64,000 bases of DNA from Candidatus Saccharimonadales bacterium (GTDB taxonomy: Bacteria > Patescibacteriota > Saccharimonadia > Saccharimonadales > UBA4665): the NCBI GenBank assembly GCA_035247965.1, contig DATFHW010000025.1, positions 510,551-574,550 of the forward strand. The letters run 5' to 3'. The notes beneath the pieces are model-generated. The model made no database searches, was not told the DNA's origin, and worked only from the letters and a program-made list of their open reading frames with translations. Shown one piece after another: positions 21,729-63,998 of the stretch (position 1 is its first letter; each line of letters opens with the position of its first letter). The position numbers were made by a program, and so were the translations under genes.

Positions 21729-21761
21729 CCGGCGTCATTCGCCTAAAAACGAGGACGCCGG
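21729..21761 (+). terminator. GC-rich hairpin CCGGCGTC/GACGCCGG with no U-tract
   Basis: 8-bp perfect stem between two sub-arrays of block B. Confidence 0.35.
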
Positions 21762-21785
21762 TCTGCCGCATAGAAAGTAACAGAC

Positions 21786-21983: not shown

Positions 21984-21993
21984 AGAGGAAAAC

Positions 21994-22200: not shown

Positions 22201-22208
22201 GGAGGAAC

Positions 22209-22424: not shown

Positions 22425-22436
22425 GAGGAAAAAGGA

Positions 22437-22625: not shown

Positions 22626-22664
22626 GAAAGCGTGTACGCGCTTCGGCCAACCGAGAGGAAAAGG

Positions 22665-22895
22665 ATGCAACAAACGCTAGCTGTAACACCCGGTGAAAGC
22701 CTGCAGGGCATGGCGCTGGTCGTTGGCTACTTCGCCACCGCCGGCTTCCTGGCCCTTACAGCCTACTGCCTGCACGGGACGTTCATGCGCCCGGGCAGCT
22801 TGGGCAAACGAGCCACCAGGTTCCTGGTCGCTGTTCTGTCGATTGTGGCCATGGCGTTCATCGTCATGCACACGGTACCGAGGAGAAATCAATGA
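22665..22895 (+). CDS. block B 2-TM paralog 5 (76 aa)
   Basis: Internal Met (MQQTLAV) of track ORF 22632..22895, preceded by GAGAGGAAAAGG. Confidence 0.65.
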   Translation: MQQTLAVTPGESLQGMALVVGYFATAGFLALTAYCLHGTFMRPGSLGKRATRFLVAVLSIVAMAFIVMHTVPRRNQ

Positions 22896-23107
22896 AGGAA
22901 GCGCTCATCATCGCGGCCGCCCAGCAGACGACGTCTGTGGGTGAGCACAAGGCCGAGCTCATCGGGATGGCCATCGGTTTCATCCTGACCATCGCCGGAG
23001 TCTGGCGAAACGCCAACAACCAAAGCGACAAGAACAAGGGCGGTTTCCTCGTCGGCCTGGGCCTCGTGATCGTCGTCGGGAGCGGGATCATCCTGCTGTA
23101 CTCATAG
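22892..23107 (+). CDS. block B 2-TM paralog 6 (71 aa)
   Basis: Track ORF. ATGA overlap with the upstream gene. RBS GAGGAGAAA. Confidence 0.7.
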   Translation: MKEALIIAAAQQTTSVGEHKAELIGMAIGFILTIAGVWRNANNQSDKNKGGFLVGLGLVIVVGSGIILLYS

Positions 23108-23160
23108 TAGGCGCCGCGACCTAAGTCGCTCTGCAATTCTGAACAACCCGCACGAAGACG

Positions 23161-23212
23161 GCCTCCGGGCTGGCACCCGCCAGCAACCTGCCGTTCCCCG
23201 GCATCCGGAGGC
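23161..23212 (+). terminator. nested GC-rich hairpin GCCTCCGG...CCGGAGGC with no U-tract
   Basis: Outer 8-bp stem enclosing an inner GCTGGC-accc-GCCAGC stem. It follows the six-paralog array. Confidence 0.4.
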
Positions 23213-23314
23213 ACGTCGTGTAAACATATGGTTGAGCGCCCGCGCTCCCATCACTGTTTGCACGACTTTTTCATACTTATTTATTTTTTACGAACATCAT
23301 ACACATTACATACG

Positions 23315-23343
23315 TTGACATTGCATGCTCGCGGGCGTACACT
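23315..23343 (+). promoter_or_regulatory. promoter TTGACA-N17-TACACT
   Basis: Consensus -35 at 23315-23320 and TACACT at 23338-23343, within an AT-rich patch. Confidence 0.55.
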
Positions 23344-23382
23344 GTCCACGTCTGTAAAAAACGACGACCCCAAGGGGGAAAC

Positions 23383-23535
23383 ATGAGCAAGTCCAAGCAC
23401 GCTCGCGGTCGCTGGGACGGTTGCATTGTGCCGGCCGTTCTGCTGACTGTCGCCTTGGCGGCTGGGATCTACGTCTTCCACAGTGAGCTCGGGACGTTCT
23501 TTGTCAATCTGGTGCAGCAGCTCGTAGGACGCTAA
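23383..23535 (+). CDS. basic-N-terminus single-TM miniprotein (50 aa; not in ORF track)
   Basis: MSKSKHARGRWDGCIVPAVLLTVALAAGIYVFHSELGTFFVNLVQQLVGR. AAGGGGGAA lies upstream. Confidence 0.6.
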   Translation: MSKSKHARGRWDGCIVPAVLLTVALAAGIYVFHSELGTFFVNLVQQLVGR

Positions 23536-23765
23536 TGTCCAACGAACACAAGCACCGCAAGGGCAAACAGCCCGATACCTACGCCGCGGCTAGGAAACGT
23601 GTGCGCCGAGCGGACTGCCGCCGTCGCTGCCATGAACGGTGCGAGTGCGTACGCGACGCGACTGCCTCTGCCGCCCGCGGCTGCTTCAGTGGCTCTACCG
23701 TAATGATCGTGGCGGTTTTACTGGCTGCTGTGGTCGCTCTCGCAGCGATTACCGGCAAGCTCTAG
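23535..23765 (+). CDS. basic, Cys-rich N-terminus with a C-terminal TM anchor (76 aa)
   Basis: Track ORF. TAATG stop/start overlap with the upstream gene. MSNEHKHRKGKQ... ending in VMIVAVLLAAVVALAAITGKL. Confidence 0.65.
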   Translation: MSNEHKHRKGKQPDTYAAARKRVRRADCRRRCHERCECVRDATASAARGCFSGSTVMIVAVLLAAVVALAAITGKL

Positions 23766-23941
23766 CTCCACCGCTCTACCCGCCTTCTGTGGTGGCCACC
23801 GTGAGCAATTAAACTCGGTGGCCACCAATGGGCCGTTTTACAGACATGGTCGTGCAGGATTGCACGAAAACAGCTTGCATTACCGCTTCCGCGGCTCTTT
23901 TTGTTTTCCTTTCTGCACGACCTACACACATCATGAGTATT

Positions 23942-23970
23942 ATTGACAACGCTTATCCCCATGTGTACAC
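23942..23970 (+). promoter_or_regulatory. promoter TTGACA-N17-TACACT (second copy)
   Basis: TTGACA at 23942-23947 and TACACT at 23965-23970. Confidence 0.55.
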
Positions 23971-24018
23971 TGGTGTACGTCCATTTGTTTGTTCATTCAT
24001 GCACTACCGGAGGCCCTT

Positions 24019-24153
24019 ATGGGGACCCACGTCAAAACGCGCGCACCCAAGGCAGCCAAGTCGTCACCCACGGGTGGCTTCGGACGAAAGTTCCTGCTGT
24101 TGATCGTCGTCGCCGGGCTCATCGCCTGGGGCATCACGTCGATCGGTCACTGA
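24019..24153 (+). CDS. basic-N-terminus tail-anchored miniprotein (44 aa; not in ORF track)
   Basis: MGTHVKTRAPKAAKSSPTGGFGRKFLLLIVVAGLIAWGITSIGH. CCGGAGG lies upstream. Confidence 0.6.
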   Translation: MGTHVKTRAPKAAKSSPTGGFGRKFLLLIVVAGLIAWGITSIGH

Positions 24154-24401
24154 CCACACGCTCCTCCAGCACGCCTTCCCAGCCTGATTAGAAAAAGCAG
24201 TGAGCCTCCCGCTGGGCAGCCCGCACCACAAGTGCCCTGCCCCGGGAGGATCCTGTAACACCCCATACCCGCCCCTTTGCTATGAACCCGGACAACCCCC
24301 ACAAACCTTTGTTGAGGTCGCACTCGCGACATCCGAAGGCACAATCGTGCACGCAACCCTACCCTACCAACTTTTACGTGCACGATTTTTTCCTATTTAC
24401 A

Positions 24402-24430
24402 TTGACAATACCTAATATCGGTGATATAAC
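24402..24430 (+). promoter_or_regulatory. promoter TTGACA-N17-TATAAC
   Basis: TTGACA at 24402-24407 and TATAAC at 24425-24430. Confidence 0.5.
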
Positions 24431-24489
24431 GTACGCAGTTCGTCTGAACATAGTACGTTGAAAATTTAGTTGTATTGGAGGTGAGATCT

Positions 24490-24630
24490 TTGCAGCTCGC
24501 TTCAGAGGGCTTCGGCAGTGCCGGGCCTATTTTTTGTTACATCGGAATGGTCCTATTCGTCCTATGGTGGTGGCGTGGACGTGGTCCTCGACCTCCCAGG
24601 GGTGGCGGCCGTTCCGATATCGTCCACTAG
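24490..24630 (+). CDS. single-TM miniprotein with a WWW and Arg/Gly/Pro-rich tail (46 aa, TTG start; not in ORF track)
   Basis: MQLASEGFGSAGPIFCYIGMVLFVLWWWRGRGPRPPRGGGRSDIVH. GGAGGTGA lies 6 nt upstream of the TTG. Confidence 0.4.
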   Translation: MQLASEGFGSAGPIFCYIGMVLFVLWWWRGRGPRPPRGGGRSDIVH

Positions 24631-24720
24631 GACGGCGACACTGACGTGAGCTGTTCACACGCACAATCCGTGGACTTTCCCCGTCCATTCAAACACCGCC
24701 GAGTAAAACGGAGGTAACAC

Positions 24721-25044
24721 ATGAGTGCATCCGCGCTCATCACGGCCACCCAGCTGGCCAGTTCGTCCGGCACCAGCCTTGCGGCGGCAGCCAGCCCCGA
24801 CGTGCAGACCGCAATCCTGGTGGGTTGTGGCATCGTGCTCGGGGCCGGTCTGCTCATCAAGCTGGTGATGCCCAAGATCCCGCTCTGGCTGATCATGTTG
24901 GTCGCCTGCGTGATCTGCGCCGGCGTCAGCTTCATGGGCCTCTACGCCGGCAACCTGCCGTTCAAGTCGATCGCCGGCGCCCTCCTGGTGCTGTCGATCC
25001 TCACCTTCCTGGCGGCCAAGCTCGTCAAGGGCTCGCGGCACTAG
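24721..25044 (+). CDS. block B membrane protein (107 aa, 3 TM), MSASAL family
   Basis: Track ORF. RBS ACGGAGGTAAC. Confidence 0.7.
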   Translation: MSASALITATQLASSSGTSLAAAASPDVQTAILVGCGIVLGAGLLIKLVMPKIPLWLIMLVACVICAGVSFMGLYAGNLPFKSIAGALLVLSILTFLAAKLVKGSRH

Positions 25045-25086
25045 GACACCGTCCTGTCCGACTCACCGTAAAGGGGATCTCGGTTC

Positions 25087-25182
25087 ATGCCGACTTCCTG
25101 TGGGATGACCCCCGGCCAGACGGTAATCGCAGTCGCGTTCGTCCTTCTGGCCGGTGTGGTCGTGATCGCAGGGCTTAGCTAG
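25087..25182 (+). CDS. CGMTPG-motif single-TM micropeptide (31 aa; not in ORF track)
   Basis: MPTSCGMTPGQTVIAVAFVLLAGVVVIAGLS. Homologous to 25469..25585. Confidence 0.5.
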   Translation: MPTSCGMTPGQTVIAVAFVLLAGVVVIAGLS

Positions 25183-25210
25183 ATCCGAGTCCATCAACGG
25201 AGGTAACCAT

Positions 25211-25456
25211 ATGGGTGCATCCGCACTCGTACCCCTCGCAAGCATGCTGCAGAAGGAGCACCCCGTTCCCGGGATGTTCCTCGTGGCAGTCTTCGGCGTG
25301 GGGTTCGTCGTCTCGGCGATCGCGGTCGCGAGGTACGGCAATAAGAAGGGCGCCGAGAAGGTACTGCTCGTCAGCACCATCGTCGGTGCCCTGGGCGGCG
25401 GAGCAGCTGTCTGGATCATGATCATGCTGCTCAGCGCCATACGCATGCAGGGATGA
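25211..25456 (+). CDS. block B membrane protein (81 aa, 2 TM), MGASAL family
   Basis: Track ORF. Its RBS and first codons are near-identical to those of 24721 (ACGGAGGTAAC..ATGnGTGCATCCGC). Confidence 0.7.
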   Translation: MGASALVPLASMLQKEHPVPGMFLVAVFGVGFVVSAIAVARYGNKKGAEKVLLVSTIVGALGGGAAVWIMIMLLSAIRMQG

Positions 25457-25468
25457 GGGCCTGAATCC

Positions 25469-25585
25469 GTGGGAAGCTTCTGTGGAATGACCCCGGGCGA
25501 GCTGATGTTCGCAGGCGTCTTCGTCCTTCTGTTCGGAATTGTGTACGCCATCGGGCGACGCAACAAGAACAAGGAGGGCGACTGA
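25469..25585 (+). CDS. CGMTPG-motif single-TM micropeptide (38 aa, GTG start; not in ORF track)
   Basis: MGSFCGMTPGELMFAGVFVLLFGIVYAIGRRNKNKEGD. Confidence 0.5.
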   Translation: MGSFCGMTPGELMFAGVFVLLFGIVYAIGRRNKNKEGD

Positions 25586-25644
25586 TGCTCACCGCACCAC
25601 TCGCCGGGGTCAGCTCCGCTACCGACACGTCCGCCAACAAGTAG
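25585..25644 (+). CDS. possible 19-aa peptide (not hydrophobic)
   Basis: MLTAPLAGVSSATDTSANK. TGATG coupling, with AAGGAGGG 6 nt upstream. It may be a remnant. Confidence 0.25.
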   Translation: MLTAPLAGVSSATDTSANK

Positions 25645-25663
25645 ACCAACGGAGGTATCTACT

Positions 25664-25900
25664 GTGCAACACCTCGCTGTTGCGGCATTCGCTGCCGGCA
25701 ACACCGGAAACCTCGTCTCCGCCCAGATGCTGGTGGGAGAGTTCGTTGGGATATTCATCATCGCGACGATCTACACCATCGTCAAGGCAAAGCGGAAGAA
25801 CACCAGGAATCCGGTCGCGTTCGGCATCACCATGGGCGCCGTCACCGGCATCCTCGCCGTCCTGCTCACGGTCTTCCTGGGCACCTACTTTCGGCTGTAA
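25664..25900 (+). CDS. block B 2-TM protein (78 aa, GTG start)
   Basis: Track ORF. RBS ACGGAGGTA. Confidence 0.65.
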   Translation: MQHLAVAAFAAGNTGNLVSAQMLVGEFVGIFIIATIYTIVKAKRKNTRNPVAFGITMGAVTGILAVLLTVFLGTYFRL

Positions 25901-25910
25901 GGAGGGGTAA

Positions 25911-26114
25911 ATGAGCTCCGCGAGCTCTGTTCTGGAAACGGGCGTCACCATCGGCGGCACGCACATCAACGGCCTGCTTCTGATCGCAGCGATCATCGTG
26001 GTCGTGGCGATTGTGGCGTTTGCGCTGCTGAAAACCACCAAGGCAGTGATCGTCTCGGTGGCAACGGCCGCCATCATCGCCGGTGCAACCGCACACGGAT
26101 GGTGGTGGCACTGA
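25911..26114 (+). CDS. block B 2-TM protein (67 aa)
   Basis: Track ORF. RBS AAGGAGGGG. Confidence 0.7.
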   Translation: MSSASSVLETGVTIGGTHINGLLLIAAIIVVVAIVAFALLKTTKAVIVSVATAAIIAGATAHGWWWH

Positions 26115-26203
26115 TGTCCAGCGTCAGCCCTGGTGCCCTTGGCTGGGCAGTGGCCCTGATCGTCGTGGGCGTCATCGTCGTCATACGACGAGGCCGCCGG
26201 TGA
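26114..26203 (+). CDS. single-TM micropeptide with an RRGRR tail (29 aa; not in ORF track)
   Basis: MSSVSPGALGWAVALIVVGVIVVIRRGRR. TGATG coupling with the upstream gene. Confidence 0.5.
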   Translation: MSSVSPGALGWAVALIVVGVIVVIRRGRR

Positions 26204-26225
26204 CCAAATCAACGGGGGACTTCCG

Positions 26226-26303
26226 ATGAAGTGGGTCGGCGTGCTGATCGTACTCATCGGAATTGTCGCGATGTTCTACGGAACTCGTGGCACACGAAGG
26301 TAA
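26226..26303 (+). CDS. single-TM micropeptide (25 aa; not in ORF track)
   Basis: MKWVGVLIVLIGIVAMFYGTRGTRR. GGGGGA lies upstream. Confidence 0.45.
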   Translation: MKWVGVLIVLIGIVAMFYGTRGTRR

Positions 26304-26355
26304 TCGCAGATAACGGCAGCAGATCGCTCGCCGTTCAACGGAGGGAAACCCGCAC

Positions 26356-26499
26356 ATGAGTCACCTCGTCCGCGCCATCAACCTGGCGGCCGTCGACAAC
26401 CGCGCGTTCAAGCTGGAGGACCACCCGGTCTTCTGCATCGTGTCGATCGTCGTGTTCGCCGCCGGCGTCATCTACCTGTGGCGCAAGAAGAGCTCGTAA
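26356..26499 (+). CDS. tail-anchored miniprotein (47 aa; not in ORF track)
   Basis: MSHLVRAINLAAVDNRAFKLEDHPVFCIVSIVVFAAGVIYLWRKKSS. ACGGAGGGAAA lies upstream. Confidence 0.6.
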   Translation: MSHLVRAINLAAVDNRAFKLEDHPVFCIVSIVVFAAGVIYLWRKKSS

Positions 26500-26508
26500 G
26501 GGGGCATC

Positions 26509-26649
26509 ATGCACATCACACAGGCAGCGCTGGAGTACCTGGCGTACACGCCGAGCAACAAGCACTTCGGCATGAACAACACCACCTTCTTCACGGTGGT
26601 GTTCGGCGGAATCGGTCTGGTCATCTTCCTTCTCACGAAGAAGAAGTAG
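26509..26649 (+). CDS. tail-anchored miniprotein (46 aa; not in ORF track)
   Basis: MHITQAALEYLAYTPSNKHFGMNNTTFFTVVFGGIGLVIFLLTKKK. AAGGGGG lies upstream. Same architecture as 26356. Confidence 0.6.
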   Translation: MHITQAALEYLAYTPSNKHFGMNNTTFFTVVFGGIGLVIFLLTKKK

Positions 26650-26747
26650 TTCTTGGCCGTCGTCGGACTTCTTCTGATCAAGCGGCGTGGCGACTAGCCT
26701 CGACCGCACACTCCACCCACGCAACACCTCACGGAAGGAACACGCGC

Positions 26748-26906
26748 ATGTCGCGTCTCACCGTCAGCGCACAGACCCTCGCGGGCGACGTCGCCGCCAA
26801 GTCCGGACACGGGATCCCCGTCGGCTGGATCGGCTTCGGCGCCGTCATGATCGTCCTGCTGGTCATCGGTGTCCGCTGGGCCCGCGGTCGCAACAACAAG
26901 GGCTGA
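26748..26906 (+). CDS. single-TM miniprotein (52 aa)
   Basis: MSRLTVSAQTLAGDVAAKSGHGIPVGWIGFGAVMIVLLVIGVRWARGRNNKG. Internal Met of track ORF 26478..26906, preceded by CGGAAGGAA. Confidence 0.6.
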   Translation: MSRLTVSAQTLAGDVAAKSGHGIPVGWIGFGAVMIVLLVIGVRWARGRNNKG

Positions 26907-26953
26907 CCAGCACTCAACGGGCAACTGCCCACTAACGAAGGGAGACCCCGGAC

Positions 26954-27454
26954 ATGTCCGGTCTCAACCCCGACATGGTCACCACGGCCGCCGACATCAA
27001 CTTCGGTGGTGACCAGGCGTTCCGGTCGCTGTACAGCGGCGTCGGCCTCACCGGTCTGCTGTTCTCGGCCGCGATCGTGTTCGTCTACCACTGGGCCAAG
27101 AGTCCGAAGTGGGGCATCGGCACCGGCGTGATCATCGTGTTCTTCACGAACTTCCTGATCACCGGGCTGCTCATCCCGCTCGCGCTCAGCTACAACACTG
27201 GCTCCCTCAACTTCATGGGCGCCAGCAAGTTCAAGGGCCTCCTGAACATGGCCGGCATCGGTCAGGCCGAGCAGCTCGGCACGTTCGTCATCTGCGTCGT
27301 GCTGGTGTTCCTGCTGGGGAAGAAGTTCAAGTGGGGGAAGGGAGCGCAGCTCGTCATGATCGTCGTGCTACCGCTGTTCTACCTCCACTGGTTCCGCCCC
27401 TTCTGGGAGTCCACCGGCATCGACCTCGGCAGCATGAACATCCCGTTCCTCTGA
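26954..27454 (+). CDS. block B polytopic membrane protein (166 aa, about 4 TM)
   Basis: Track ORF. RBS GAAGGGAGA. Confidence 0.75.
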   Translation: MSGLNPDMVTTAADINFGGDQAFRSLYSGVGLTGLLFSAAIVFVYHWAKSPKWGIGTGVIIVFFTNFLITGLLIPLALSYNTGSLNFMGASKFKGLLNMAGIGQAEQLGTFVICVVLVFLLGKKFKWGKGAQLVMIVVLPLFYLHWFRPFWESTGIDLGSMNIPFL

Positions 27455-27504
27455 CCGTCGGCCGGTCCGATACAACTAAACAATAACTGAATGTTCGACG
27501 CGAA

Positions 27505-44259: not shown

Positions 44260-45708
44260 CTAGGCCTTTGCGGGCTCGGGCTGATCGTGCTTGGGGAACA
44301 ACGTTCCTTCGGTTGGCTGAATCACACCCTTTTCAAATATGTGCTTAATTTTTTCGGCAGTCTGAGGTAACAGCGGCGTTAGCAGATCAGCAATTTCCAG
44401 CAAACAGCTCACTTGGTACGCCAAAACTTCCTGCAAGTGCTGCTCGTCATTTTCTTTGGCAATCTGCCAGGGCTTTTCTTCGTCAATATATTGGTTGAGA
44501 CCACGGACTTGCTCCCAGATTTCGTCAAAAGCACGGTCAAAGCGGCAGTCTTCAATTGCCCGCGTAACAGGGGCGCTGTCGTGCGATGCCTCTGGAATTT
44601 GGCCAATAATGCCGTTTTGGTACTTCATGATCATGGCGCTGGTGCGCTGCACGGCGTTTCCTAATTCGTTGGCCAGTTCGTTGTTGTAGGCTTTTTCGAA
44701 CAATTCCCAGCTAAAGTCACCGTCGTTGTAGCTTGGAATGTGACGCAAGAAGTAATAGCGGAAGGCGTCAGGGCCGTATTTTTCTACGATCTCGGACGGT
44801 GCAACCACGTTGCCAATGGATTTGCTCATTTTTTCGCCGTTCATGGTGATAAAACCGTGCACGTAGAGCTGCTTTGGCAGTGGCAGGTTCAGGCTTAGCA
44901 GCATGCCAGGCCAGATTGCAGCATGGAAGCGCAAAATGTCTTTGCCGATCACCTGCACACTTGCCGGCCAAAAGTCTTTAAAGTCTTTGTGCTCGGGGTA
45001 GCCTAGCACGGTAATGTAGTTCATCAACGCCTCGAACCACACATACATAACCTGCGTTGGATCGCCCGGCACCGGAATTCCCCACTCCAGCTTGTCTTTG
45101 GGGCGCGAAATGCTGATATCGTCCAGACCTTCTTCTAGCACCGCCAAAATCTCGTTTTTACGAGTTTCGGGCACAATGCGAAACGCACCAGATTGAATTG
45201 CTTCGCGAATTTGGTCGGTGTAATTGCTCAGCTTAAAAAAGTAGTTTTCTTCCTTCAGTTTTTGGTAGGCCTGCGGGTGCTCCGGATTCATGCGAGTCGG
45301 ATCTGCCTTGGCCTCGGGCACAAATTCCTCTTCTTTAACGTCGTACCAACCAGTGTAGCTGGACTTGTAGATGTCTTTTTCGAGCGCTTTCCAGATCAGT
45401 TGCGCACGCTGTTCGTGCGGCTTGTCGGTGGTGCGAATAAATCGGTCATTACTAACATTTAGCAACTTGCCTAGGTCGCGAAATTTTTGGCTAATTTCGT
45501 CCACAAAAGCTTGCGGTTTAACCCCGGCGGCCAGCGCTTTTTCGGCAATTTTGGTACCGTGTTCGTCGGCGCCGGTGCTAAATATGGTGGCCTGCCCTTT
45601 TTGACGAGCGGCGCGAGCCAGAACATCGGCGGCAATCAGCTCCATTCCAAATCCAACGTGCGGATCAGCGTTTACATACGGAATAGAAGTGGTTACATAA
45701 AAATTCAT
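44260..45708 (-). CDS. metG: methionine--tRNA ligase (short form)
   Basis: PYVNADPHVGF (HIGH-type) and KMSKS motifs. Confidence 0.93.
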   Translation of the reverse strand: MNFYVTTSIPYVNADPHVGFGMELIAADVLARAARQKGQATIFSTGADEHGTKIAEKALAAGVKPQAFVDEISQKFRDLGKLLNVSNDRFIRTTDKPHEQRAQLIWKALEKDIYKSSYTGWYDVKEEEFVPEAKADPTRMNPEHPQAYQKLKEENYFFKLSNYTDQIREAIQSGAFRIVPETRKNEILAVLEEGLDDISISRPKDKLEWGIPVPGDPTQVMYVWFEALMNYITVLGYPEHKDFKDFWPASVQVIGKDILRFHAAIWPGMLLSLNLPLPKQLYVHGFITMNGEKMSKSIGNVVAPSEIVEKYGPDAFRYYFLRHIPSYNDGDFSWELFEKAYNNELANELGNAVQRTSAMIMKYQNGIIGQIPEASHDSAPVTRAIEDCRFDRAFDEIWEQVRGLNQYIDEEKPWQIAKENDEQHLQEVLAYQVSCLLEIADLLTPLLPQTAEKIKHIFEKGVIQPTEGTLFPKHDQPEPAKA

Positions 45709-45790
45709 ACTATCAGTCTACCTGCTTATGGAAGTGTTGTAAAAGTTTAGAAAAAGAAAAATTAAGCCCGCGGGGGCATCATACGCATAG

Positions 45791-45822
45791 AAAAAAGTGG
45801 CGCGATATGTTTCATCACCACT
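45791..45822 (-). terminator. rho-independent terminator at the distal end of block C
   Basis: On the minus strand: AGTGGTG...CGCCACT followed by TTTTTT. Confidence 0.45.
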
Positions 45823-46130
45823 TACTATACTATGTTTAGCTGGTTGTTGCTAGTTCCCTTTCGTCGTCTCACGAGCTCGTATCCTTCGGATAGGAGCCGG
45901 ATTTCTCGGAAAATGTACAAATATGTAAACACATTTGTCCGCTTTCCTGCGAAATCCACTCATCGGTGCAACTATGCGTTTGCAGAGGGACAAACAAACA
46001 GAACGGCACAGAATCAAACAGAGGGACATGGCTGGCGGCCACATACAACGCATCTGTTTCTGCATCATTCTGCCTGTTTGTACGCTCGGTTGAGTGGACG
46101 GCTAGATCAGTTCAGGCGACGGCGTTCGGG

Positions 46131-46760
46131 TCAGCGACCGATGGGGTAGAACTCGCGGTGGATGCGGTCGAGCTGGTCCAGCGTGATGGTCATGTCGATG
46201 AAGCCGGGAAGAACCAGCGCGAACTCAGGGATGGCAGCGTTCTGCTTGTAGAACCTCTTGATCGACGGCGAGTACATGACCATGACGGCCAGCACCGCGT
46301 CGCGGTTGTAGATCTGGTCCAGCGGGGTGAGGGTGATCTCCTCGACGGAGCGCTTGTCGAACATGAGCGAGCCGGGGATGCCCGTGGCGGCGCGGAAGGC
46401 GCGCAGGAACGTGCCGTAGACGGCCGGCTTCATGACGTCGACCGCGCTGTTGCGGATGGAGTCGTTCTGCACGGTGGGACCGTAGCCAGCCATGGCCGAC
46501 AGCAGCCAGACCAAGTTGAGTCGCGCCGCAGAGTCCAGAGCGCCGTGAACGGCCTCCGCCATCTGGCGGGTGTTGGTGAACTTCTCGGGGAGCGAGTCGG
46601 CGCTGGTGCGCTGCTCAGGGGTCGCGGGCTGTACGGCCGAGGTCTCGCGACGGAGCCACGGGTTCCTCAGGGTCTTGCGCGCCAGGAAGGCGAACAGGAC
46701 GATGAGCACGACGGCACCGCCAATGAGCCAGGGATACAGCTCGGGCTGGATCGAAGACAT
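46131..46760 (-). CDS. block C protein (209 aa) with an N-terminal TM and a soluble domain of unknown function
   Basis: Internal ATG of track ORF 46131..46859. The GC-rich part starts here. MSSIQPELYPWLIGGAVVLIVLFAFLARK... Confidence 0.65.
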   Translation of the reverse strand: MSSIQPELYPWLIGGAVVLIVLFAFLARKTLRNPWLRRETSAVQPATPEQRTSADSLPEKFTNTRQMAEAVHGALDSAARLNLVWLLSAMAGYGPTVQNDSIRNSAVDVMKPAVYGTFLRAFRAATGIPGSLMFDKRSVEEITLTPLDQIYNRDAVLAVMVMYSPSIKRFYKQNAAIPEFALVLPGFIDMTITLDQLDRIHREFYPIGR

Positions 46761-46963
46761 GACAGGATCTCTTTCTCTCGCTTGAACGACAAAGCCGTTT
46801 CTCCAAACGTCGGAGAATGATGTGTGATTCTGTAACACACGGCTAAAGCGAGTACCCAATTCACCTCTGTTATAAGGTGCGCTCGGTACTCACTTTAAAC
46901 CGATGTTCTGTTTGTTAAGGCGGCAGTGGAAAATACCTATAAGTCTCTCCAAAGCCACGTAAT

Positions 46964-46992
46964 ATAATACCATAAATGCAACAAAAAAGCAA
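46964..46992 (-). promoter_or_regulatory. promoter TTGCTT-N17-TATTAT (minus strand)
   Basis: The plus strand shows ATAATA at 46964-46969 and AAGCAA at 46987-46992. A structured leader of about 190 nt follows. Confidence 0.45.
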
Positions 46993-47016
46993 TGCTTATG
47001 ACTACTTTTATGCACT

Positions 47017-47040
47017 AAAAAACAGCCCAAAAATGGCTGC
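47017..47040 (-). terminator. rho-independent terminator (linker copy 1)
   Basis: On the minus strand: GCAGCC-attttt-GGGCTG followed by TTTTTT. Homologous to 47997..48020. Confidence 0.7.
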
Positions 47041-47056
47041 AAATTATAGGGTGATG

Positions 47057-47070
47057 CTTTGAGAAGAAGT
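47057..47070. repeat. 14-nt cassette-boundary inverted repeat (CTTTGAGAAGAAGT)
   Basis: One mismatch to the reverse complement of 47879-47892. Confidence 0.6.
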
Positions 47071-47147
47071 TGGTTTGAAAGAGATCGAGCCGAGGCGGCC
47101 AGCGTGAGCATGAAGCTCCGAGCTGGCCGCCAACAGGCGTGAGTGGA

Positions 47148-47414
47148 TCAGAGGTGTGTGGCGTACAGGTACGTCGTGGCCACGAGTGATCCCAGAGGAA
47201 GCAGCAGCAGGCACGCGCCCAGCTTGGTGGACCGACGAACCCACAGCATCGCGGCGACAACGATCAGCATGGTGATACCGAGCATCGCGGTGGCGAGTGC
47301 CGTGTAGTGGGGGTGAAGCCAGAACTTCCAGATGATGCCAGCCGTGAGGGCCAGAATCTTCAGGGTGGTCTTGGCCCACCAGCGCGGCGTGAGGTCTTCG
47401 GCGTTGTTGCTCAT
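47148..47414 (-). CDS. block C membrane protein (88 aa, 3 TM)
   Basis: Track ORF. GGGGGGA lies upstream of the ATG. Confidence 0.7.
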   Translation of the reverse strand: MSNNAEDLTPRWWAKTTLKILALTAGIIWKFWLHPHYTALATAMLGITMLIVVAAMLWVRRSTKLGACLLLLPLGSLVATTYLYATHL

Positions 47415-47453
47415 GGTCCCCCCGTACAGTAGGTGATGGTCAATGCGGGAAGG

Positions 47454-47804
47454 TCAGCGGGCGTTGAGCCACGGGATGAACAGTGTCAGGTGGCCGGCGG
47501 TGATGCCGAGCAGGAAGACAGCGCAAGTGAGCGTGAGGCGTCCTACGACGACCAGGTCGCGGCGGTTCGCGAAGCTTCGAATGATGTAGTTGCCGGCGGT
47601 GATGCCTGTAAGGCTCAGGACGCCCAAGACCAGGAGCACGTCGCGGCCGTACGTCATGTTGCGGTAATGCATGTCCAGGTTGAGCTCGCGCTGGCTGAAG
47701 CCAACGGCAGAGTCCCAGCCAACGGCGTAGCCGAGGGCGAGCACCAGGCCATAAGCCAACAGAACAGCAAGAAGCTTGCGCGATTCGCGGAATGCGATGT
47801 TCAC
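47454..47804 (-). CDS. block C membrane protein (116 aa, about 4 TM, GTG start)
   Basis: Track ORF. GC3-rich. Confidence 0.65.
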   Translation of the reverse strand: MNIAFRESRKLLAVLLAYGLVLALGYAVGWDSAVGFSQRELNLDMHYRNMTYGRDVLLVLGVLSLTGITAGNYIIRSFANRRDLVVVGRLTLTCAVFLLGITAGHLTLFIPWLNAR

Positions 47805-47878
47805 GTTATCTCTCTTTCGTGCGACACGTTTCTAGGGGTAGTGCTACAGGGCATTACGGCGTAGAACGCGGTATCACA

Positions 47879-47892
47879 ACTCCTTCTCAAAG
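47879..47892. repeat. 14-nt cassette-boundary inverted repeat (ACTCCTTCTCAAAG; carries the SD on the minus strand)
   Basis: Exact reverse complement of 48041-48054. Confidence 0.65.
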
Positions 47893-47923
47893 GTCGTGCT
47901 CTCTGGTTGAGAACAGAATCTAT

Positions 47924-47952
47924 ATTATACCACTTATTCATTAAAAATGCAA
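47924..47952 (-). promoter_or_regulatory. promoter TTGCAT-N17-TATAAT with extended -10 (minus strand)
   Basis: The plus strand shows ATTATA at 47924-47929 and ATGCAA at 47947-47952. Confidence 0.55.
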
Positions 47953-47996
47953 TTTTAGCGTAAGCAGTAAGGCCGGGATAAAAAATAAAAATCATC

Positions 47997-48020
47997 AAAA
48001 AACAGCCCCAAATGGGGCTG
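47997..48020 (-). terminator. rho-independent terminator (linker copy 2)
   Basis: On the minus strand: CAGCCCC-attt-GGGGCTG followed by TTTTTT. Confidence 0.75.
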
Positions 48021-48040
48021 CAAAAATTACAGGGGTGGTG

Positions 48041-48054
48041 CTTTGAGAAGGAGT
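48041..48054. repeat. 14-nt cassette-boundary inverted repeat (CTTTGAGAAGGAGT)
   Basis: Pairs with 48667-48680 and with 47879-47892. Confidence 0.65.
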
Positions 48055-48137
48055 GCGTAGAGGGTGGCAAGGCGGCCGACACAGAGCTGATGCTCCAAGC
48101 CGGCCACCAGCCCACGATTTTCTTGCAGCTTTTGCGC

Positions 48138-48395
48138 TTATGGCGTCAGGTAGGACTGCACCTGGGTGAAGAACGGCGTTAGAAGTCCGAGTGCGACGCC
48201 GAAGGTAACTCCGAAGAGCACCAATGCGGCATAAGGCACACTCTCGCGATCGAAGTGTTCCCAGATCCAGCCGATCAGGCCAGAAACAATCAGGACAGCC
48301 ACAGCAGGTGCTGTTGCAGGATGAGTTGTCCGTACAACACCCGCAGCCAGCCCAACGGCGAGCCCGAATACCACAAGCTTACGTCCAGTGTTCAT
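48138..48395 (-). CDS. block C membrane protein (85 aa, 3 TM)
   Basis: Track ORF. AAAGGGA lies upstream. Confidence 0.7.
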   Translation of the reverse strand: MNTGRKLVVFGLAVGLAAGVVRTTHPATAPAVAVLIVSGLIGWIWEHFDRESVPYAALVLFGVTFGVALGLLTPFFTQVQSYLTP

Positions 48396-48408
48396 GAATC
48401 CCTTTCGC

Positions 48409-48663
48409 TCAGTGGAACATGTTCAGTGCGACGTACACGCCGACGGCCATGCCCAAGTTGGCGGAACCGGAATACCGGCAGACCCGGGTGATGTACTGAC
48501 TCCCGCTGAGTGCTGCGATAGCGAACCACACGGCCGTGGCGAAAAAGCCGACAACACACAGCGTGTGGGCGAACCGCACGTGGTCCTGGATGTCTACCCG
48601 AATGATCTGGACACCCAGCGCGACCAGGACAGCGGTCAGTACGCAGTTGCGGAATTGTTTCAT
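48409..48663 (-). CDS. block C membrane protein (84 aa, 3 TM)
   Basis: Track ORF. GAGAAGGAG lies 3 nt upstream of the ATG. Confidence 0.7.
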   Translation of the reverse strand: MKQFRNCVLTAVLVALGVQIIRVDIQDHVRFAHTLCVVGFFATAVWFAIAALSGSQYITRVCRYSGSANLGMAVGVYVALNMFH

Positions 48664-48666
48664 GAT

Positions 48667-48680
48667 CTCCTTCTCAAAGG
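48667..48680. repeat. 14-nt cassette-boundary inverted repeat (CTCCTTCTCAAAGG; carries the SD on the minus strand)
   Basis: Reverse complement of 48041-48053 plus one extra base. Confidence 0.65.
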
Positions 48681-48708
48681 TCGGTTCTCGGTCGAGAACA
48701 TGAGGTCT

Positions 48709-48737
48709 GTTATATCATTAATCTTTTAAAATAGCAA
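48709..48737 (-). promoter_or_regulatory. promoter TTGCTA-N17-TATAAC (minus strand), followed by the hairpin GTTCTC-gacc-GAGAAC
   Basis: The plus strand shows GTTATA at 48709-48714 and TAGCAA at 48732-48737. Confidence 0.5.
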
Positions 48738-48858
48738 GGGAGGAGGGACTCGACACTAATTGACTGCAAGCGTGCCACCGGCACACTTGCTATTACTCGT
48801 TCGAGTCCCTTTTAACGCAAGAAATTAAAAAGACCACCAAATGGTGATCTTTTTAATT

Positions 48859-48945
48859 TGGTGGGCGAGGAGGGACTCGAACCCTCAAGACTGTAAGGTC
48901 AGCGGATTTTAAGTCCACCGCGTATACCAATTCCGCCACTCGCCC
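48859..48945 (-). tRNA. tRNA-Leu (anticodon UAA), CCA encoded
   Basis: 87-nt cloverleaf: acceptor GGGCGAG/CTCGCCC, anticodon loop CTTAAAA, a long variable arm, and T-arm GAGGG-TTCGAGT-CCCTC. Confidence 0.9.
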
Positions 48946-51366: not shown

Positions 51367-51386
51367 ACAAAAAGCCCCGTGGGGCG
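51365..51386 (-). terminator. rho-independent terminator of block D
   Basis: On the minus strand: GCCCC-ac-GGGGC followed by TTTTTGTTT. Confidence 0.6.
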
Positions 51387-51543
51387 TGTAGTTCGTGTGG
51401 GATGGTTCAAGCGGACAATTCGGGGAAAACGGGGTGGGGCGTGGAAGCCCAGTGGTGGCACTTCCACGCCCGCGGTTCTCCGTTCCTTCGATCGTAGGTG
51501 GCCAGATGGCCGGGTCAGGTTGGCCGACGGCCGAGGTTCTTGG

Positions 51544-52446
51544 TCAGGCGGCGAGCTCGGCGTTCTCCAGGAGGACCTTCAGGCTCCTCAGGATCTGTCC
51601 GATCCCGGAGAGCGGGTTCTGGGCCTGCCAGATGGGCTGGCCTTCGACGCCGACCTGGATGGTGTCGCCGAACATGAACAGCTGGCTGCCGTTGTGGTCG
51701 TACGACTTGTCGAGGTCGCGGGCGGCGAGACGGAACTGGCCGGCGGCCTGGATCGTGTTCGGCGCGTTGCCGATGACCAGCGTGTAGTGGTCGGCGTCCA
51801 GGAGCTCGCGGTGCTCGTCGAAGAGCTGCTCCAGGACGTCGGCGGCGTGACCGCTCTCGACGGGGATCAGCTGCGTCCTTGCGAAGCCGGCGGCCGCGAG
51901 CGCGGGCTCGATGAACCGGTCGACGAACGCCGCCTCGGTGGGCAGCCTCCCGCTCTCGTTGGCGAACGTGCGGACCAGCTGGTGCTCGGCGACGCTCATG
52001 ACACGGTTGCCCATCGGCAGGAGGACCTGTCCGACGGAGTTGGGGTCGATCCGCTGGGCGAGCGCCAGACGCCGGAGCATCCAGTTGGCGACGCCGCCCG
52101 AGAAGACGAGCGTGTCGACCTGCTGCGGTACGGCCACGGTGGGGTCGCAGAACGACCCGCGGAGCGCGGCCATGGCGCCGGAGCGCTGCAGCCAGTCGGC
52201 GCCGACCTGGAACGCGTCCTCGCCGAGGTACTTGAGGGCATGGACGATGTTGTCCTGGAGCGTCTTGTGCGGAGCCACCTTGCTGGTGACTTCGCTCAGG
52301 AACTGGGACGTGAGCTGGTCGGGGACCGCCAGGCCGAAGGACTGGATGATCTCTGTCAGGACGCCGCCGTTCTCGCTCTCACCGATGGTGAGGAGCAGGT
52401 CGGGGTGGTTCCGCACGGCGTGCAGGCTGTAGCAGCCGAAGTGCAT
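51544..52446 (-). CDS. block D soluble protein of unknown function (300 aa)
   Basis: Internal ATG of track ORF 51544..52530, preceded by GGAGGGA. GC3-rich. No TM helix and no recognised motif. Confidence 0.65.
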   Translation of the reverse strand: MHFGCYSLHAVRNHPDLLLTIGESENGGVLTEIIQSFGLAVPDQLTSQFLSEVTSKVAPHKTLQDNIVHALKYLGEDAFQVGADWLQRSGAMAALRGSFCDPTVAVPQQVDTLVFSGGVANWMLRRLALAQRIDPNSVGQVLLPMGNRVMSVAEHQLVRTFANESGRLPTEAAFVDRFIEPALAAAGFARTQLIPVESGHAADVLEQLFDEHRELLDADHYTLVIGNAPNTIQAAGQFRLAARDLDKSYDHNGSQLFMFGDTIQVGVEGQPIWQAQNPLSGIGQILRSLKVLLENAELAA

Positions 52447-52526
52447 GATGAATCCCTCCGAAGGGGCTAGAATTGTCTGCTTGAACGAGCTGTGATGGAT
52501 CTGTAAAAGCCTCCAAAACAGCCTAT

Positions 52527-61928: not shown

Positions 61929-63998
61929 CTATTCCTCCAACTTGCCACTTGATATGTCAAAGAACTTGTTGAAGAAGTTGGTTAGCTTGTCCAGCACGGT
62001 TTCGCGCTTTTTGCCGCGCGAGTTGTCTGCTGAAAAACGTGATACGGGCGGCAGGATTTTGGCTATGGCCGTGCCGGTTGATTGTAACGAGCCGTCGCGG
62101 AAAGCATTGTCTATAAAACGGTAGGTTTCGTCGTGGTCAAGCCCCTCGTCGGCGATAATCGCATTAAGCTCTTCTACCTTTTTGGCGTCAACAAATTTGC
62201 GCCAATCATCGTCCACCGATGAGTTGACATTGAGCGAGATAATAAACTGCTCTATCAGGTCTTTCTTGTTGCGCAGCTCAACACTACTATCAATCGCCTT
62301 GTTGATGTCCACCAGCAGTTCTTTGTCCTCTTGGTTGCCTGCGTGGTATTTGCGTATCAGCTCTAGGATGTAGTCAATGTTTATCTCTACCTGCTTAATC
62401 AGCTCCATCTCAAAAACAACATCATCGTTGACGTTTTCTTTGTCGGCATCAGTGCCCTTACGGAACTCGTTGTACAAGTTGATGTACATACTGTGGTAGT
62501 CCTGAATGTCGCGGGCGGACAGGATTTCGTTGCCCACAAAATCATCAAATGTAGTCAGGATGTTGCGCACGCGCAGGATACCGCCGTACAACTTGATGAA
62601 CTCTTTTTGGGCCTGCTCGCCGATTATTTGTTGCCCTACAGGGAACCGCTCCGTTAATTCAGCTACCAGCTCGGCGTAGCCGCGCTGGTGTTTGCCATTA
62701 TCGTCGTAGCCATTGTAATACTCGTTGTAACTCTTAAGCAGCACAATGCCACCGGCTTCCTTGTCGCCGAACAGCGCCAGTGCCTCATTAGTGGCTTTTT
62801 CGAGGTTGCGGAAACTCACGATGTTACCGAATGTCTTAACGGAGTTAAGGATGCGATTAGTACGAGAGTAGGCTTGCAGCAAGCCGTGTGAGCGCAGGCG
62901 CTTGTCTACCCATAATGTATTGAGCGTGGTGGCGTCAAAGCCAGTCAGAAACATATTGACCACTATCAGCAGGTCAATTTCTCGGTTTTTCATCCTTAGC
63001 GATACATCTTTGTAATAGTTTTGGAAGTTATCCGCTGATGTATCGTAGCTGGTAGCAAACATCTGATTGTAGTCGCGGATTGCGCCGTCTAGGAAATCAC
63101 GTGAGCCGCTGTCCAGTCCCTCTGTACCCTCGCTGTTTTCGTCTTCTAGCCCGTCCAGCAGGGCTTCGTCTTCGTTGACGCCGTAGCTATAAATAATTGC
63201 TACCTTGAGCCGCGTTGCTTCGGGCGCTTCGGCTTGCTGGCGCTTGAACTCGGCATAATACTTTTTAGCGGCTTCTATGGAACTGACAGCAAAGATACTA
63301 TTAAAGCCGCTAAGCCGAATGCGCTGCTTGATTTCCTCTATGGCGTGGCGGTCGCGGGCAGTGGCAACCTCGTGGATGTTTCGCAGTGCACCAAACGCAT
63401 AACTGCTGTTGCGTTTGGTCTTTTGGTCAAAGTGCTCACGGATGTACTGCACCACTTTGCTAATGCGCTCTGGCGCTCCCAGTATGGCTTCGGTGTCTAT
63501 GCTGCGTACCTGCGCGTCGTCTATGTCTTCGGCTTCCCGCACGGTGCTTATGTAGTCTATACGGAACGGCAGGACGTTTTTATCGGTAATGGCGTCAACG
63601 ATGGTGTAAGTATGCAGCTTTTCACCAAAGGCTTGCTCGGTGGTTTTGAGGTCAGCACGCCCGCTACTAGAGATGTTGGCGGAGAATATCGGCGTGCCAG
63701 TAAAACCAAAGATGTGATAATTCTTGAAGCTCTTGGTAATAGAGTGGTGCATATCGCCAAACTGTGAGCGGTGGCACTCGTCAAAAATCAAAACTATGTG
63801 CCCGTCAAAGATGCGGTGCCCCTCGTTTTTCTTAATGAACTTGTCTAGCTTCTGAATGGTAGTAATGATAATACGAGCGTTCGGATTTTCTAGTTGCTTC
63901 TTAAGCTTGGCGGTGCTGGTATTGCTGTTAGCTGCGCCTTTCTCAAACTTGTCGTATTCTTTCATTGTCTGGTAGTCCAAGTCTTTGCGGTCTACCAC
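61929..63998 (-). CDS. hsdR: type I restriction enzyme R subunit (N-terminus beyond the window)
   Basis: Helicase motif II is FDECHRS. It also has GFTGTPIF, QAYSRTNR, and a long C-terminal helical domain. The ORF is open to the window edge. Confidence 0.88.
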   Translation of the reverse strand: MVDRKDLDYQTMKEYDKFEKGAANSNTSTAKLKKQLENPNARIIITTIQKLDKFIKKNEGHRIFDGHIVLIFDECHRSQFGDMHHSITKSFKNYHIFGFTGTPIFSANISSSGRADLKTTEQAFGEKLHTYTIVDAITDKNVLPFRIDYISTVREAEDIDDAQVRSIDTEAILGAPERISKVVQYIREHFDQKTKRNSSYAFGALRNIHEVATARDRHAIEEIKQRIRLSGFNSIFAVSSIEAAKKYYAEFKRQQAEAPEATRLKVAIIYSYGVNEDEALLDGLEDENSEGTEGLDSGSRDFLDGAIRDYNQMFATSYDTSADNFQNYYKDVSLRMKNREIDLLIVVNMFLTGFDATTLNTLWVDKRLRSHGLLQAYSRTNRILNSVKTFGNIVSFRNLEKATNEALALFGDKEAGGIVLLKSYNEYYNGYDDNGKHQRGYAELVAELTERFPVGQQIIGEQAQKEFIKLYGGILRVRNILTTFDDFVGNEILSARDIQDYHSMYINLYNEFRKGTDADKENVNDDVVFEMELIKQVEINIDYILELIRKYHAGNQEDKELLVDINKAIDSSVELRNKKDLIEQFIISLNVNSSVDDDWRKFVDAKKVEELNAIIADEGLDHDETYRFIDNAFRDGSLQSTGTAIAKILPPVSRFSADNSRGKKRETVLDKLTNFFNKFFDISSGKLEE

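Follow-up and report, generated by a model that had tools for sequence, protein, structure and literature searches.

Complementary boxes at both ends of variable membrane-protein transcription units in a Saccharimonadales genome: a probable case of end-to-end mRNA pairing

Why should neighbouring transcription units begin with a box that contains a Shine-Dalgarno (SD) sequence and end with the complement of that box? The question is raised by a minus-strand islet in a 64,000-nucleotide stretch (the window) of a Candidatus Saccharimonadales metagenome-assembled genome (assembly GCA_035247965.1, contig DATFHW010000025.1, positions 510,551 to 574,550), in which three separate predicted transcription units, A, B and c3, are bounded by tRNA-Leu(taa) and metG. 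An earlier reading of the window from its letters alone (the sequence-only reading) had noticed the repeat and offered two answers: recombination-based shuffling of cassettes, or a 3' anti-SD that masks the SD of the same RNA. The second is the best supported, by conserved paired boxes, wobble-keeping changes, predicted folds and complements in neighbouring units. We consider it probable that the inverted repeat is a long-range duplex between the 5' and 3' untranslated regions (UTRs), which in type A units would block the ribosome site ahead of the first gene and in every unit would close off the ends of the mRNA.

The inverted repeat and its conservation

The minus-strand open reading frames (ORFs) that had been listed for the islet (84 and 85, 116 and 88, and 209 aa) are all present and agree with the gene calls HJP96455-59 of the GenBank record itself, whose contig is 809,595 bp long. 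The repeat is also where it had been placed: its 13-mer CTTTGAGAAGGAG occurs exactly at 48667-48679 (minus strand), 48041-48053 (plus strand) and 47880-47892 (minus strand), and with one mismatch at 47057-47069 (plus strand). There is no further site with up to one mismatch in the 64 kb, and a fifth site, at 62403-62415, has two mismatches; these 5 sites compare with ~0.96 expected, and 0 of 100 shuffles gave as many. Units A and B are made up of the following parts, given in the order in which they are transcribed.

48709..48717, minus strand: unit A promoter, extended -10 element TGATATAAC; its TATAAT column is kept in 10 aligned 5' modules
48684..48699, minus strand: unit A 5'-terminal hairpin, GTTCTC-GACC-GAGAAC
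48667..48682, minus strand: unit A 5' box GACCTTTGAGAAGGAG, containing the SD, which lies 3 nt ahead of the ATG of the 84-aa ORF
48409..48663, minus strand: A1, 84-aa hydrophobic protein with two strongly hydrophobic segments; GC content at third codon positions (GC3) 0.79
48138..48395, minus strand: A2, 85-aa protein with three hydrophobic segments; homologue in the relative L108
48071..48108, minus strand: unit A 3'-UTR GC-rich hairpin, predicted at -29.5 kcal/mol
48041..48053, minus strand: unit A 3' box CTCCTTCTCAAAG, exact complement of the 5' box
47997..48021, minus strand: unit A intrinsic terminator, GCAGCCCC-ATTT-GGGGCTG-T6
47924..47932, minus strand: unit B promoter, consensus extended -10 element TGGTATAAT
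47897..47915, minus strand: unit B 5'-terminal hairpin, TGTTCTC-AACCA-GAGAGCA
47880..47895, minus strand: unit B 5' box GACCTTTGAGAAGGAG
47805..47877, minus strand: type-B leader, a GTG plus 7-codon mini-ORF (47854-47877) followed by GTGATACC...CATCACACGAAAGAGAGA, which precedes the real GTG start
47454..47804, minus strand: B1, 116-aa membrane protein with the C-terminus ..IPWLNAR; a family of 6 in relatives
47148..47414, minus strand: B2, membrane protein of 88 aa carrying the motif IWKFWLHPHYT; its family has 7 members in relatives
47094..47131, minus strand: unit B 3'-UTR GC-rich hairpin, predicted at -30.1 kcal/mol
47057..47069, minus strand: unit B 3' box CTTCTTCTCAAAG, with one C->T that gives a G.U pair with the 5' box
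47017..47040, minus strand: unit B intrinsic terminator

Types A and B share a scaffold that runs, 5' to 3', from the extended -10 element through the 5' hairpin and the box GACCUUUGAGAAGGAG to the cargo genes, and then through a GC-rich hairpin and the complement CUCCUUCUCAAAG to the terminator. In each unit the two boxes fall between a predicted extended -10 promoter and a predicted intrinsic terminator. On the predicted transcript the first nucleotide of the 5' box is at about +23-25, and ~15-25 nt separate the 3' box from the terminator stem that follows it; a generic sigma-70 scan missed these promoters because the -35 box is absent. The linker between the units is repeated, as the sequence-only reading had it, with 78% identity over 74 nt in its 5' part (48737-48667 against 47952-47880) and 83% over 58 nt in its 3' part (48054-47997 against 47070-47017). 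The terminators and extended -10 boxes assigned to it are present, but the GTTCTC hairpin occurs in the two 5' modules and not in the linker at 46960-47056. The repeat had also been taken as the boundary of the cassettes. The homology of the 3' modules begins ~55 nt upstream of the anti-SD, at the GC-rich hairpin, and the inverted repeat is therefore not the edge of a conserved block. That the 5' copy is the ribosome-binding site holds for unit A, in which the SD stands 3 nt before the ATG, but not for unit B, in which the 116-aa ORF starts 75 nt further on and has a weak SD of its own.

Is the box simply a common ribosome-site context, as the sequence-only reading had allowed? The 13-mer is paired and confined to this locus, and since it is absent at up to one mismatch from ~1.3 Mb of other Saccharibacteria metG loci, the box is not a generic context of that kind. 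With blastn the modules found no match in 80 metG loci of GTDB Saccharibacteria, to which only the tRNA and the metG promoter region were common, and they were not seen elsewhere in the 1.7 Mb of loci compared. Of the two matches to the 3' module in JGI metagenomes, one was due to chance and the other, a true one, was at the same locus (L087); in a viral collection the 16-mer had 17 exact matches, all of them chance matches in coding sequence.

Close relatives were gathered as contigs encoding a MetRS 92-96% identical to that of the window, all relatives of which are Saccharibacteria; the clade comprises L082-85, L087 and L105-L117. The repeat and the linker recur in this clade at the same locus and not at the other loci compared. 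Each genome has one or two cassettes with the exact 5' box and with CTCCTTCTCAAAG or a near variant of it. The two boxes always occur together (cassettes of L082, L105, L107, L108, L109, L111 and L113-L117), and the pair flanks 13 of the 13 distinct cassettes of these relatives. Type A encodes two ORFs, one of 70-87 and one of 84-88 aa, and has its box 3-4 nt ahead of the start codon. In type B, with an ORF of 116-151 aa (ending in ..IPWLNAR) and one of 77-90 aa (IWKFWLHPHYT), the box is followed by the leader, which is kept in the window, L082, L105, L107/108, L109 and L115 with a mini-ORF of 6-10 codons; the type-B cassette of L082 has an additional 76-aa ORF.

Hairpin loops, spacers and coding DNA are variable or unalignable among these cassettes while the 5' box is invariant and the 3' box nearly so. 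The invariant blocks of the 10 aligned 5' modules are the -10 box, TGTTCTC and the 16-nt GACCTTTGAGAAGGAG, and this last is unchanged across all 13 distinct cassettes. The 5' hairpin of the same modules varies in its 3' arm and loop and keeps its pairing through wobbles; in L115 it is one base shorter in each arm. In the 3' module a 14-nt block, A-CTCCTTCTCAAA-G/A, is almost invariant, and the spacer after the GC-rich hairpin is variable. The GC-rich hairpin has compensatory pair types at 4 of its 10 outer pairs in 11 modules (CG/UA/UG, GC/AU, GC/AU/GU and CG/UA), so the UTRs are under selection for RNA structure. Because the main ORF of type B has an SD other than the box, the conservation of the box is not explained by translation alone.

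The 14-bp helix that the two boxes could form is paired in 96.7% of 182 cells from the 13 distinct cassettes. Changes in its 3' arm are a C->U that gives G.U (unit B of the window), an A->G that gives U.G (L116/117) and a terminal G->A (type A in five genomes); the internal substitutions preserve wobble pairing and the remaining change is terminal. A shuffle test on this helix is uninformative because its 5' arm never varies. The conservation pattern is consistent with RNA pairing, not proof of it.

Folding of full cassette transcripts, which had been suggested as a check, returned the box helix in every predicted fold. The helix is in the minimum free energy (MFE) structure of 11 of 11 full-length RNAs (673-1286 nt), with a probability of 0.90-0.997 (0.99 for unit A and 0.986 for unit B). 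For unit A the 5' hairpin, a closing 13-bp helix, the GC-rich hairpin and the terminator are in both the MFE and the centroid structure (z = -5.2). The SD GAGAAGGAG is predicted to be unpaired in 0% of the full-length RNA, against 21-58% in 5' fragments of 60-400 nt or in RNA that lacks its last ~60 nt; as the SD is predicted to open once the 3' end is gone, the 3' box is its only strong partner. By these models nascent or 3'-trimmed RNA would be open and finished RNA closed.

Complementary ends and a hammerhead in other units

Unit c3, the third of the islet, has a single gene, and its two ends are complementary as well, through boxes of another sequence.

46964..46972, minus strand: c3 promoter, extended -10 element TGGTATTAT, kept in relatives
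46761..46957, minus strand: c3 structured leader of ~200 nt, with a single-stranded 5' box AACAAACAGAAC at 46905-46916
46131..46760, minus strand: c3, 209-aa protein of an orphan family, with an N-terminal transmembrane (TM) helix and an all-alpha domain
45993..46004, minus strand: c3 3' box GTTCTGTTTGTT, exact complement of the leader box, ~125 nt past the stop codon
45853..45991, minus strand: hammerhead type III relic with the core CCGATGAG (U4->C) and a ~97-nt insertion ahead of stem II

An RNAalifold consensus of seven c3 leaders has 57 pairs, 5 of them with compensatory change, arranged as a long central hairpin and two small ones. No Rfam family matches the leader, which is a conserved structured RNA and a candidate cis-regulatory element. 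The helix between the c3 boxes is paired in 84 of 84 cells in seven close genomes, with AU, GU and GC at one position. Its covariation within the close clade alone is not significant (241 of 500 shuffles), and a local alternative helix is 92% paired. More distant homologous units extend the comparison: in L006 the boxes differ (TACAAGCAAGCA and TGCTTGCTTGTA) and are still complementary over 12 nt, which 1 of 1000 shuffles matched, and in L002 they form 11 bp including one G.U. With these two units added, their 5' segments placed by pairing register, four pairs are changed on both sides and 0 of 500 shuffles reach the score of the c3-type helix; slid controls are 31-46% paired.

Outside the islet, a fourth high-GC unit lies on the plus strand at 16.1-17.9 kb (16124-16151, 17806-17895). 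It has TCCGAGTTTTAC right after a TGGTATAAT promoter, at the 5' end of the RNA, and the exact complement GTAAAACTCGGA 5 nt past its last stop, ahead of a terminator. The longest complements between 5' and 3' UTR in units A, B, c3 and the 16-kb unit are 13, 10 (13 with G.U), 12 and 12 nt, lengths that were matched in 0, 20, 5 and 0 of 2000 shuffles, respectively. Among 95 intergenic pairs of the window the longest complement has a maximum of 11 nt and a median of 7, figures that come from crude gene calls, with the high-GC units mis-called, and serve as a background distribution only.

The 3' end of c3 has a further feature. In L085, L105 (9807-9850), L109 and L111 it is followed by a compact structure with three stems and the canonical hammerhead core, CUGAnGAG...CGAAA, and the motif is found in L107 too. 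The element of the relatives has 15 pairs, 97.3% paired, of which 5, in stems I and II, are changed on both sides (0 of 500 shuffles). It shares with the type III hammerhead of Rfam (RF00008) the core, the three stems and these compensatory pairs, and differs from it in a score below the gathering threshold (24.2 bits and E = 0.0057 for L105 in a 361-nt search, against 48.5) and in the altered copy of the window. Searches with Rfam returned tRNA only in the window region, with no hammerhead at E <=1, and tRNAs only in 58 kb of relatives. Three forms can be told apart, an L105-type CUGACGAG, an L107-type CCGAAGAG and a window-type with the insertion. The window copy departs from the canonical core CUGANGA...GAAA and is probably inactive because of U4->C and the ~97-nt insertion; the L082 copy is degenerate in the same way. 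The predicted cut lies immediately 3' of the c3 3' box, and from its sequence the 3' end of c3 in the relatives is probably made by a hammerhead ribozyme. A hammerhead-like motif with a CCGACGAG core also stands after high-GC units of 255/292 aa in L002 (~6720-6770) and L006 (~3550-3600). Since the U4->C form (CCGAnGAG) is found across several lineages, it may not simply be decay. No work on hammerheads or genomic islands was found in the literature on Saccharibacteria.

A strain-variable islet and its rearrangements

The region from tRNA-Leu to metG of this Saccharimonadales genome is a strain-variable islet, and the first answer offered by the sequence-only reading, movement of DNA, has to be weighed in this setting. 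The anchors are as follows.

48859..48945, minus strand: tRNA-Leu(taa), upstream anchor of the islet (ARAGORN; Rfam tRNA, 58.7 bits)
48736..48753, minus strand: degenerate direct repeat of the tRNA-Leu 3' end (TCGAGTCCCTCCTCCCTT), 127 nt downstream of the tRNA
44260..45708, minus strand: metG, downstream anchor of the islet

The interval between tRNA-Leu(taa) and metG measures between 367 nt and 6.5 kb in Saccharimonadales (metG loci L002-L081) and is a hotspot of recombination or integration. Its contents in more distant genomes have no relation to the five ORFs of the window, and tblastn of the five proteins against 80 metG loci and the window found no relatives. The 3'-end repeat TCGAGTCCCTCCTCCCTT has only two copies within the window, against 0.01 expected, and is present in all relatives; it is probably an old integration scar. 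In three genomes among the same metG loci the tRNA is inverted. The tRNA-Leu is followed by a terminator-like hairpin with an inverted copy of the T-arm inside it (48799-48882), which is kept in relatives and, like the direct repeat, has the look of a scar from a past integration.

Layouts in the close clade are A-B-c3 (the window, L107 and L108), B-c3 (L105, L109 and L115), B-c3-c3' (L082) and A-c3 (L111, L113, L114, L116 and L117), and the order and orientation of the cassettes are constant across all of them. Units A and B are present or absent as entire transcription units, the ends of which, and not the repeats, are the edges of the insertions and deletions. Exchange also takes place within a cassette. 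L107 (6942-7750) and L108 (1645-2445), which have identical MetRS, carry unrelated second genes in cassette A; they are 97-100% identical outside a patch of ~740 nt, which has its left edge just past the tRNA-Leu terminator and its right edge exactly at the anti-SD. A1 exists in three forms unrelated by BLAST and A2 in two, in the combinations (a,x), (b,x), (b,y) and (c,y). Presence and absence of units and these allelic mosaics fit homologous recombination between conserved modules, without dedicated machinery.

It might then be supposed that the modules are kept only as homology for the exchange, duplication and deletion of cassettes, and that the complementarity of the boxes is an accident without RNA function. 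The patch that ends at the anti-SD, the presence and absence of units A and B, the mosaic A1/A2 alleles and the repeated linkers, which as direct repeats are suited to unequal crossing-over, all speak for such an account. Homology arms need neither inverted complementarity nor a single invariant core of 13-16 nt inside variable modules, however, and the edges of the indels are not at the boxes. The account also leaves the 12-nt complements of c3 and the 16-kb unit and the c3-type covariation unexplained. We think it improbable as a full explanation, and it is compatible with end pairing rather than exclusive of it.

Explanations that invoke site-specific recombination fare worse. A recombinase, which the sequence-only reading had proposed to look for, was found neither within ~10 kb in the flank of the window nor in the gene tables of relatives, and its suggestion of recombination-based shuffling is not supported in view of this absence, the lack of an attC-type site, the promoter and terminator that each unit has of its own, and the fixed order and orientation. 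Capture of cassettes as in an integron, with the linker acting like attC, would draw on the fact that the linker starts with CTCCTTCTCAAAG and ends with CTTTGAGAAGGAG and could fold as a stem around ~150 nt, and on the position of the array beside a tRNA with an integration-type direct repeat and an interval of 367 nt to 6.5 kb. Tandem units of small ORFs, linkers bounded by inverted repeats and strain-variable content are likewise shared with integron arrays. Here, however, there is no intI, attI, attC or common Pc and no GTTRRRY-type core, the third linker is without a right-hand arm, the order is fixed as A-B-c3, and the modules are confined to this locus both in the 1.7 Mb compared and in the sole true JGI match. 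Integron-like capture is largely refuted, and we regard it as the least credible of the alternatives.

A related proposal is that a recombinase flips the ORF pair relative to a fixed promoter and terminator, giving phase variation. The geometry would suit an inverton: inverted repeats enclose the coding block, and beyond them lie the promoter on the left and the terminator on the right. All 13 distinct cassettes, from independent assemblies, are nevertheless in one orientation, and no invertase or integrase lies within ~10 kb in the window or relatives. Wobble-type differences between the arms would lower DNA identity at the crossover site, and the complements of c3 and the 16-kb unit, which have the same geometry, lie within long structured UTRs. 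Inversion is accordingly very unlikely.

Three other candidates were rejected. A miniature inverted-repeat transposable element or other element of insertion-sequence type does not agree with the flanks (..CCGAC|box ... box|CACCA..), which have no target-site duplication, with the homology that extends past both repeats, or with the lack of a transposase. An engineered construct is ruled out by the recurrence of the arrangement, in diverged form, in >10 independent environmental assemblies. An antisense gene that uses the 3' box as its SD is ruled out, as no start codon or ORF is conserved.

The genes around the islet encode a 459-aa conserved protein, tRNA-Cys, an F420 ligase, MetG and TatD. 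Further blocks of 60-69% GC lie in the window at 20500-27500 and 51380-52500, in a genome of ~50% GC. The block at 20-27 kb has many small ORFs, AT-rich spacers with boxes of TTGTCAA/TTGACA type and repeated CGTGCACG motifs, and is unlike the modules between tRNA-Leu and metG.

Cargo, mechanism and known parallels

The products of the five ORFs are all hydrophobic, and clustering at 90% leaves each of them as a singleton. GC3 is 0.79-0.91 in four of the five ORFs and 0.57 in the 85-aa ORF, while host genes lie at 0.53-0.62. The codon usage does look foreign, and a donor could not be shown; for c3 an actinobacterial donor could not be shown because the family has only 10 representatives. No match of the five proteins rose above noise in Pfam, PHROGs, PADLOC or NCBIfam. 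In homologue searches c3 had only two relatives and the 88-aa protein had none; the 10 representatives of the c3 family come from an exhaustive HMMER search of 1.84 billion proteins. The AlphaFold2 model of c3 (mean predicted local distance difference test score 82) has a TM helix and an all-alpha domain and was without a match in a fold search of the PDB. A 1396-aa protein, P0135, matches residues 107-142 of c3 at seven separate places and may be a repeat protein built from this sub-motif of c3.

The nature of the cargo raises a more specific version of the end-pairing explanation, in which the units resemble type I toxin-antitoxin systems: the hydrophobic proteins would be membrane toxins, perhaps with a co-encoded immunity protein, and the full-length mRNA would be inert until activated by 3' trimming. 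The cargo proteins are all small and have many TM segments, it is only in the predicted full-length RNA that the SD is completely hidden, the coding regions are hypervariable and the UTRs conserved, and the mechanism has precedent in hok/Sok and aapA/IsoA. Typical type I toxins are <60 aa long, and the monocistronic mRNAs of hok and aapA measure a few hundred nt. The proteins of the islet have 70-151 aa, with two or three per unit, and so exceed the size of the family. No convincing antisense promoter or small RNA was found, the only -10-like elements being weak ones near c3 (TAATATAAT at 46960-46968 and TGTTATAAG at 46868-46876, both on the plus strand). Metastable structures that would block translation during transcription are absent, the SD being 21-58% open in nascent fragments, and no PADLOC, Pfam, PHROG or NCBIfam family matches. 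A toxin-like role of the cargo is plausible but disagrees with the family in two respects, size and antisense partner, and as a description of the whole system we hold it to be unlikely.

How end-to-end pairing might work in general can be outlined on the basis of the architecture observed, its conservation, the complementarity and thermodynamic plausibility of the boxes and the covariation in neighbouring helices. During transcription the box, which in type A serves the first gene as its SD, would be partly open and ribosomes could load. After synthesis of the 3' UTR the boxes would pair as an end-to-end duplex of 13-14 bp that buries the ribosome site, and the full-length mRNA would be translationally quiet until trimming of its 3' end; up to then it might be shielded, or a double-strand RNase might cut it. 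Unit c3 and the 16-kb unit would follow the same idea of paired ends with other box sequences. The conserved modules may double as homology for recombination, which would lead to the presence or absence of units and to allelic mosaics between strains.

Several points weigh against this explanation. The SD/anti-SD helix has no two-sided covariation in the 13 cassettes, and its two wobble-preserving changes could be due to chance, with odds of ~0.25-0.45 given transition bias by our own estimate. Fold prediction is unselective, in that it would return pairing for every perfect complement of a 13-mer. The c3-type covariation is partly circular, owing to the way in which the L002 and L006 segments were placed. 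In type B the real start is 75 nt downstream of the box and would not be covered directly if the box were masked. Pairing gives no explanation for the conserved CACCACCCCTGTAA after the 3' box and GAC before the 5' box. Finally, pairing in vivo, translational repression and reactivation by trimming are steps that we infer.

The scheme has precedents. The 3' UTR of icaR in Staphylococcus aureus has a UCCCCUG motif that pairs with the SD, blocks initiation and creates a substrate of RNase III (PMC3868564). A 3'-UTR anti-SD that matches the SD region in the gene's own 5' UTR is common to icaR and the present units, where the match is 13 nt and exact in A and 13 nt with one G.U in B. In icaR a 7-nt core and a long 3' UTR serve one regulator gene, whereas here a helix of 13-14 bp would close operons of two or three genes and 0.67-1.3 kb, the pairing lies in a UTR module reused on paralogous hypervariable cassettes, and the main ORF of type B has an SD other than the box. 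In hok and aapA a long-distance interaction of the 5' end with the 3' end hides the SD, and the mRNA is activated by trimming of its 3' end (PMC6733600). The hok/Sok (with its fbi-tac pairing) and aapA/IsoA systems share with the islet a hydrophobic membrane cargo and an open form of the RNA that lacks its 3' end, the latter predicted here; they differ in having an antisense RNA antitoxin and metastable hairpins that block co-transcriptional translation, whereas the SD of the islet units is predicted to be partly open and no antisense partner was found. In Bacillus subtilis hbs, a housekeeping gene, a 14-bp helix between the 5' and 3' UTR overlaps an RNase Y site and modulates the access of RNase (PMC5737220), and a helix of ~14 bp between the UTRs of one mRNA, predicted here, is the shared feature. 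Because the end pairing of c3 and of the 16-kb unit does not cover an SD, these units resemble hbs more than icaR. From the sequences compared, the islet most likely represents this rare but known type of bacterial control, pairing between 5' and 3' UTR, reused here as a module.

A wider proposal is that end-to-end pairing is a general modular expression platform of this Saccharibacteria lineage, in which a few reusable UTR scaffolds bracket hypervariable orphan membrane-protein genes that are rapidly exchanged and have foreign codon usage; we offer it as a speculation with the odds against it. Two scaffolds are observed, one with promoter, 5' hairpin and box ahead of the cargo and anti-box and terminator behind it, and one with a leader box and a 3' box with hammerhead. 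If such a platform exists, the scaffolds would keep mRNAs closed until processing. An episymbiont whose genome is tiny would thereby domesticate surface or toxin genes that are acquired or evolve fast, and gate them tightly, in a manner not described before.

Pairing between the UTRs of one mRNA is documented for a handful of bacterial genes, such as icaR, hbs, hok and aapA, and no RNA elements of this kind were found in the literature on this group of the candidate phyla radiation. Seen here is a conserved and reusable pairing module on neighbouring units, with perfect helices of 13-14 bp that would span 0.7-1.3 kb; there is also a second box pair that covaries, and one of the 3' ends has a ribozyme. 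Should the mechanism be confirmed, the islet would provide a clean natural system for long-range mRNA closure, and it would hint at how an episymbiont with a reduced genome controls hypervariable membrane proteins, which may act on its host or its competitors.

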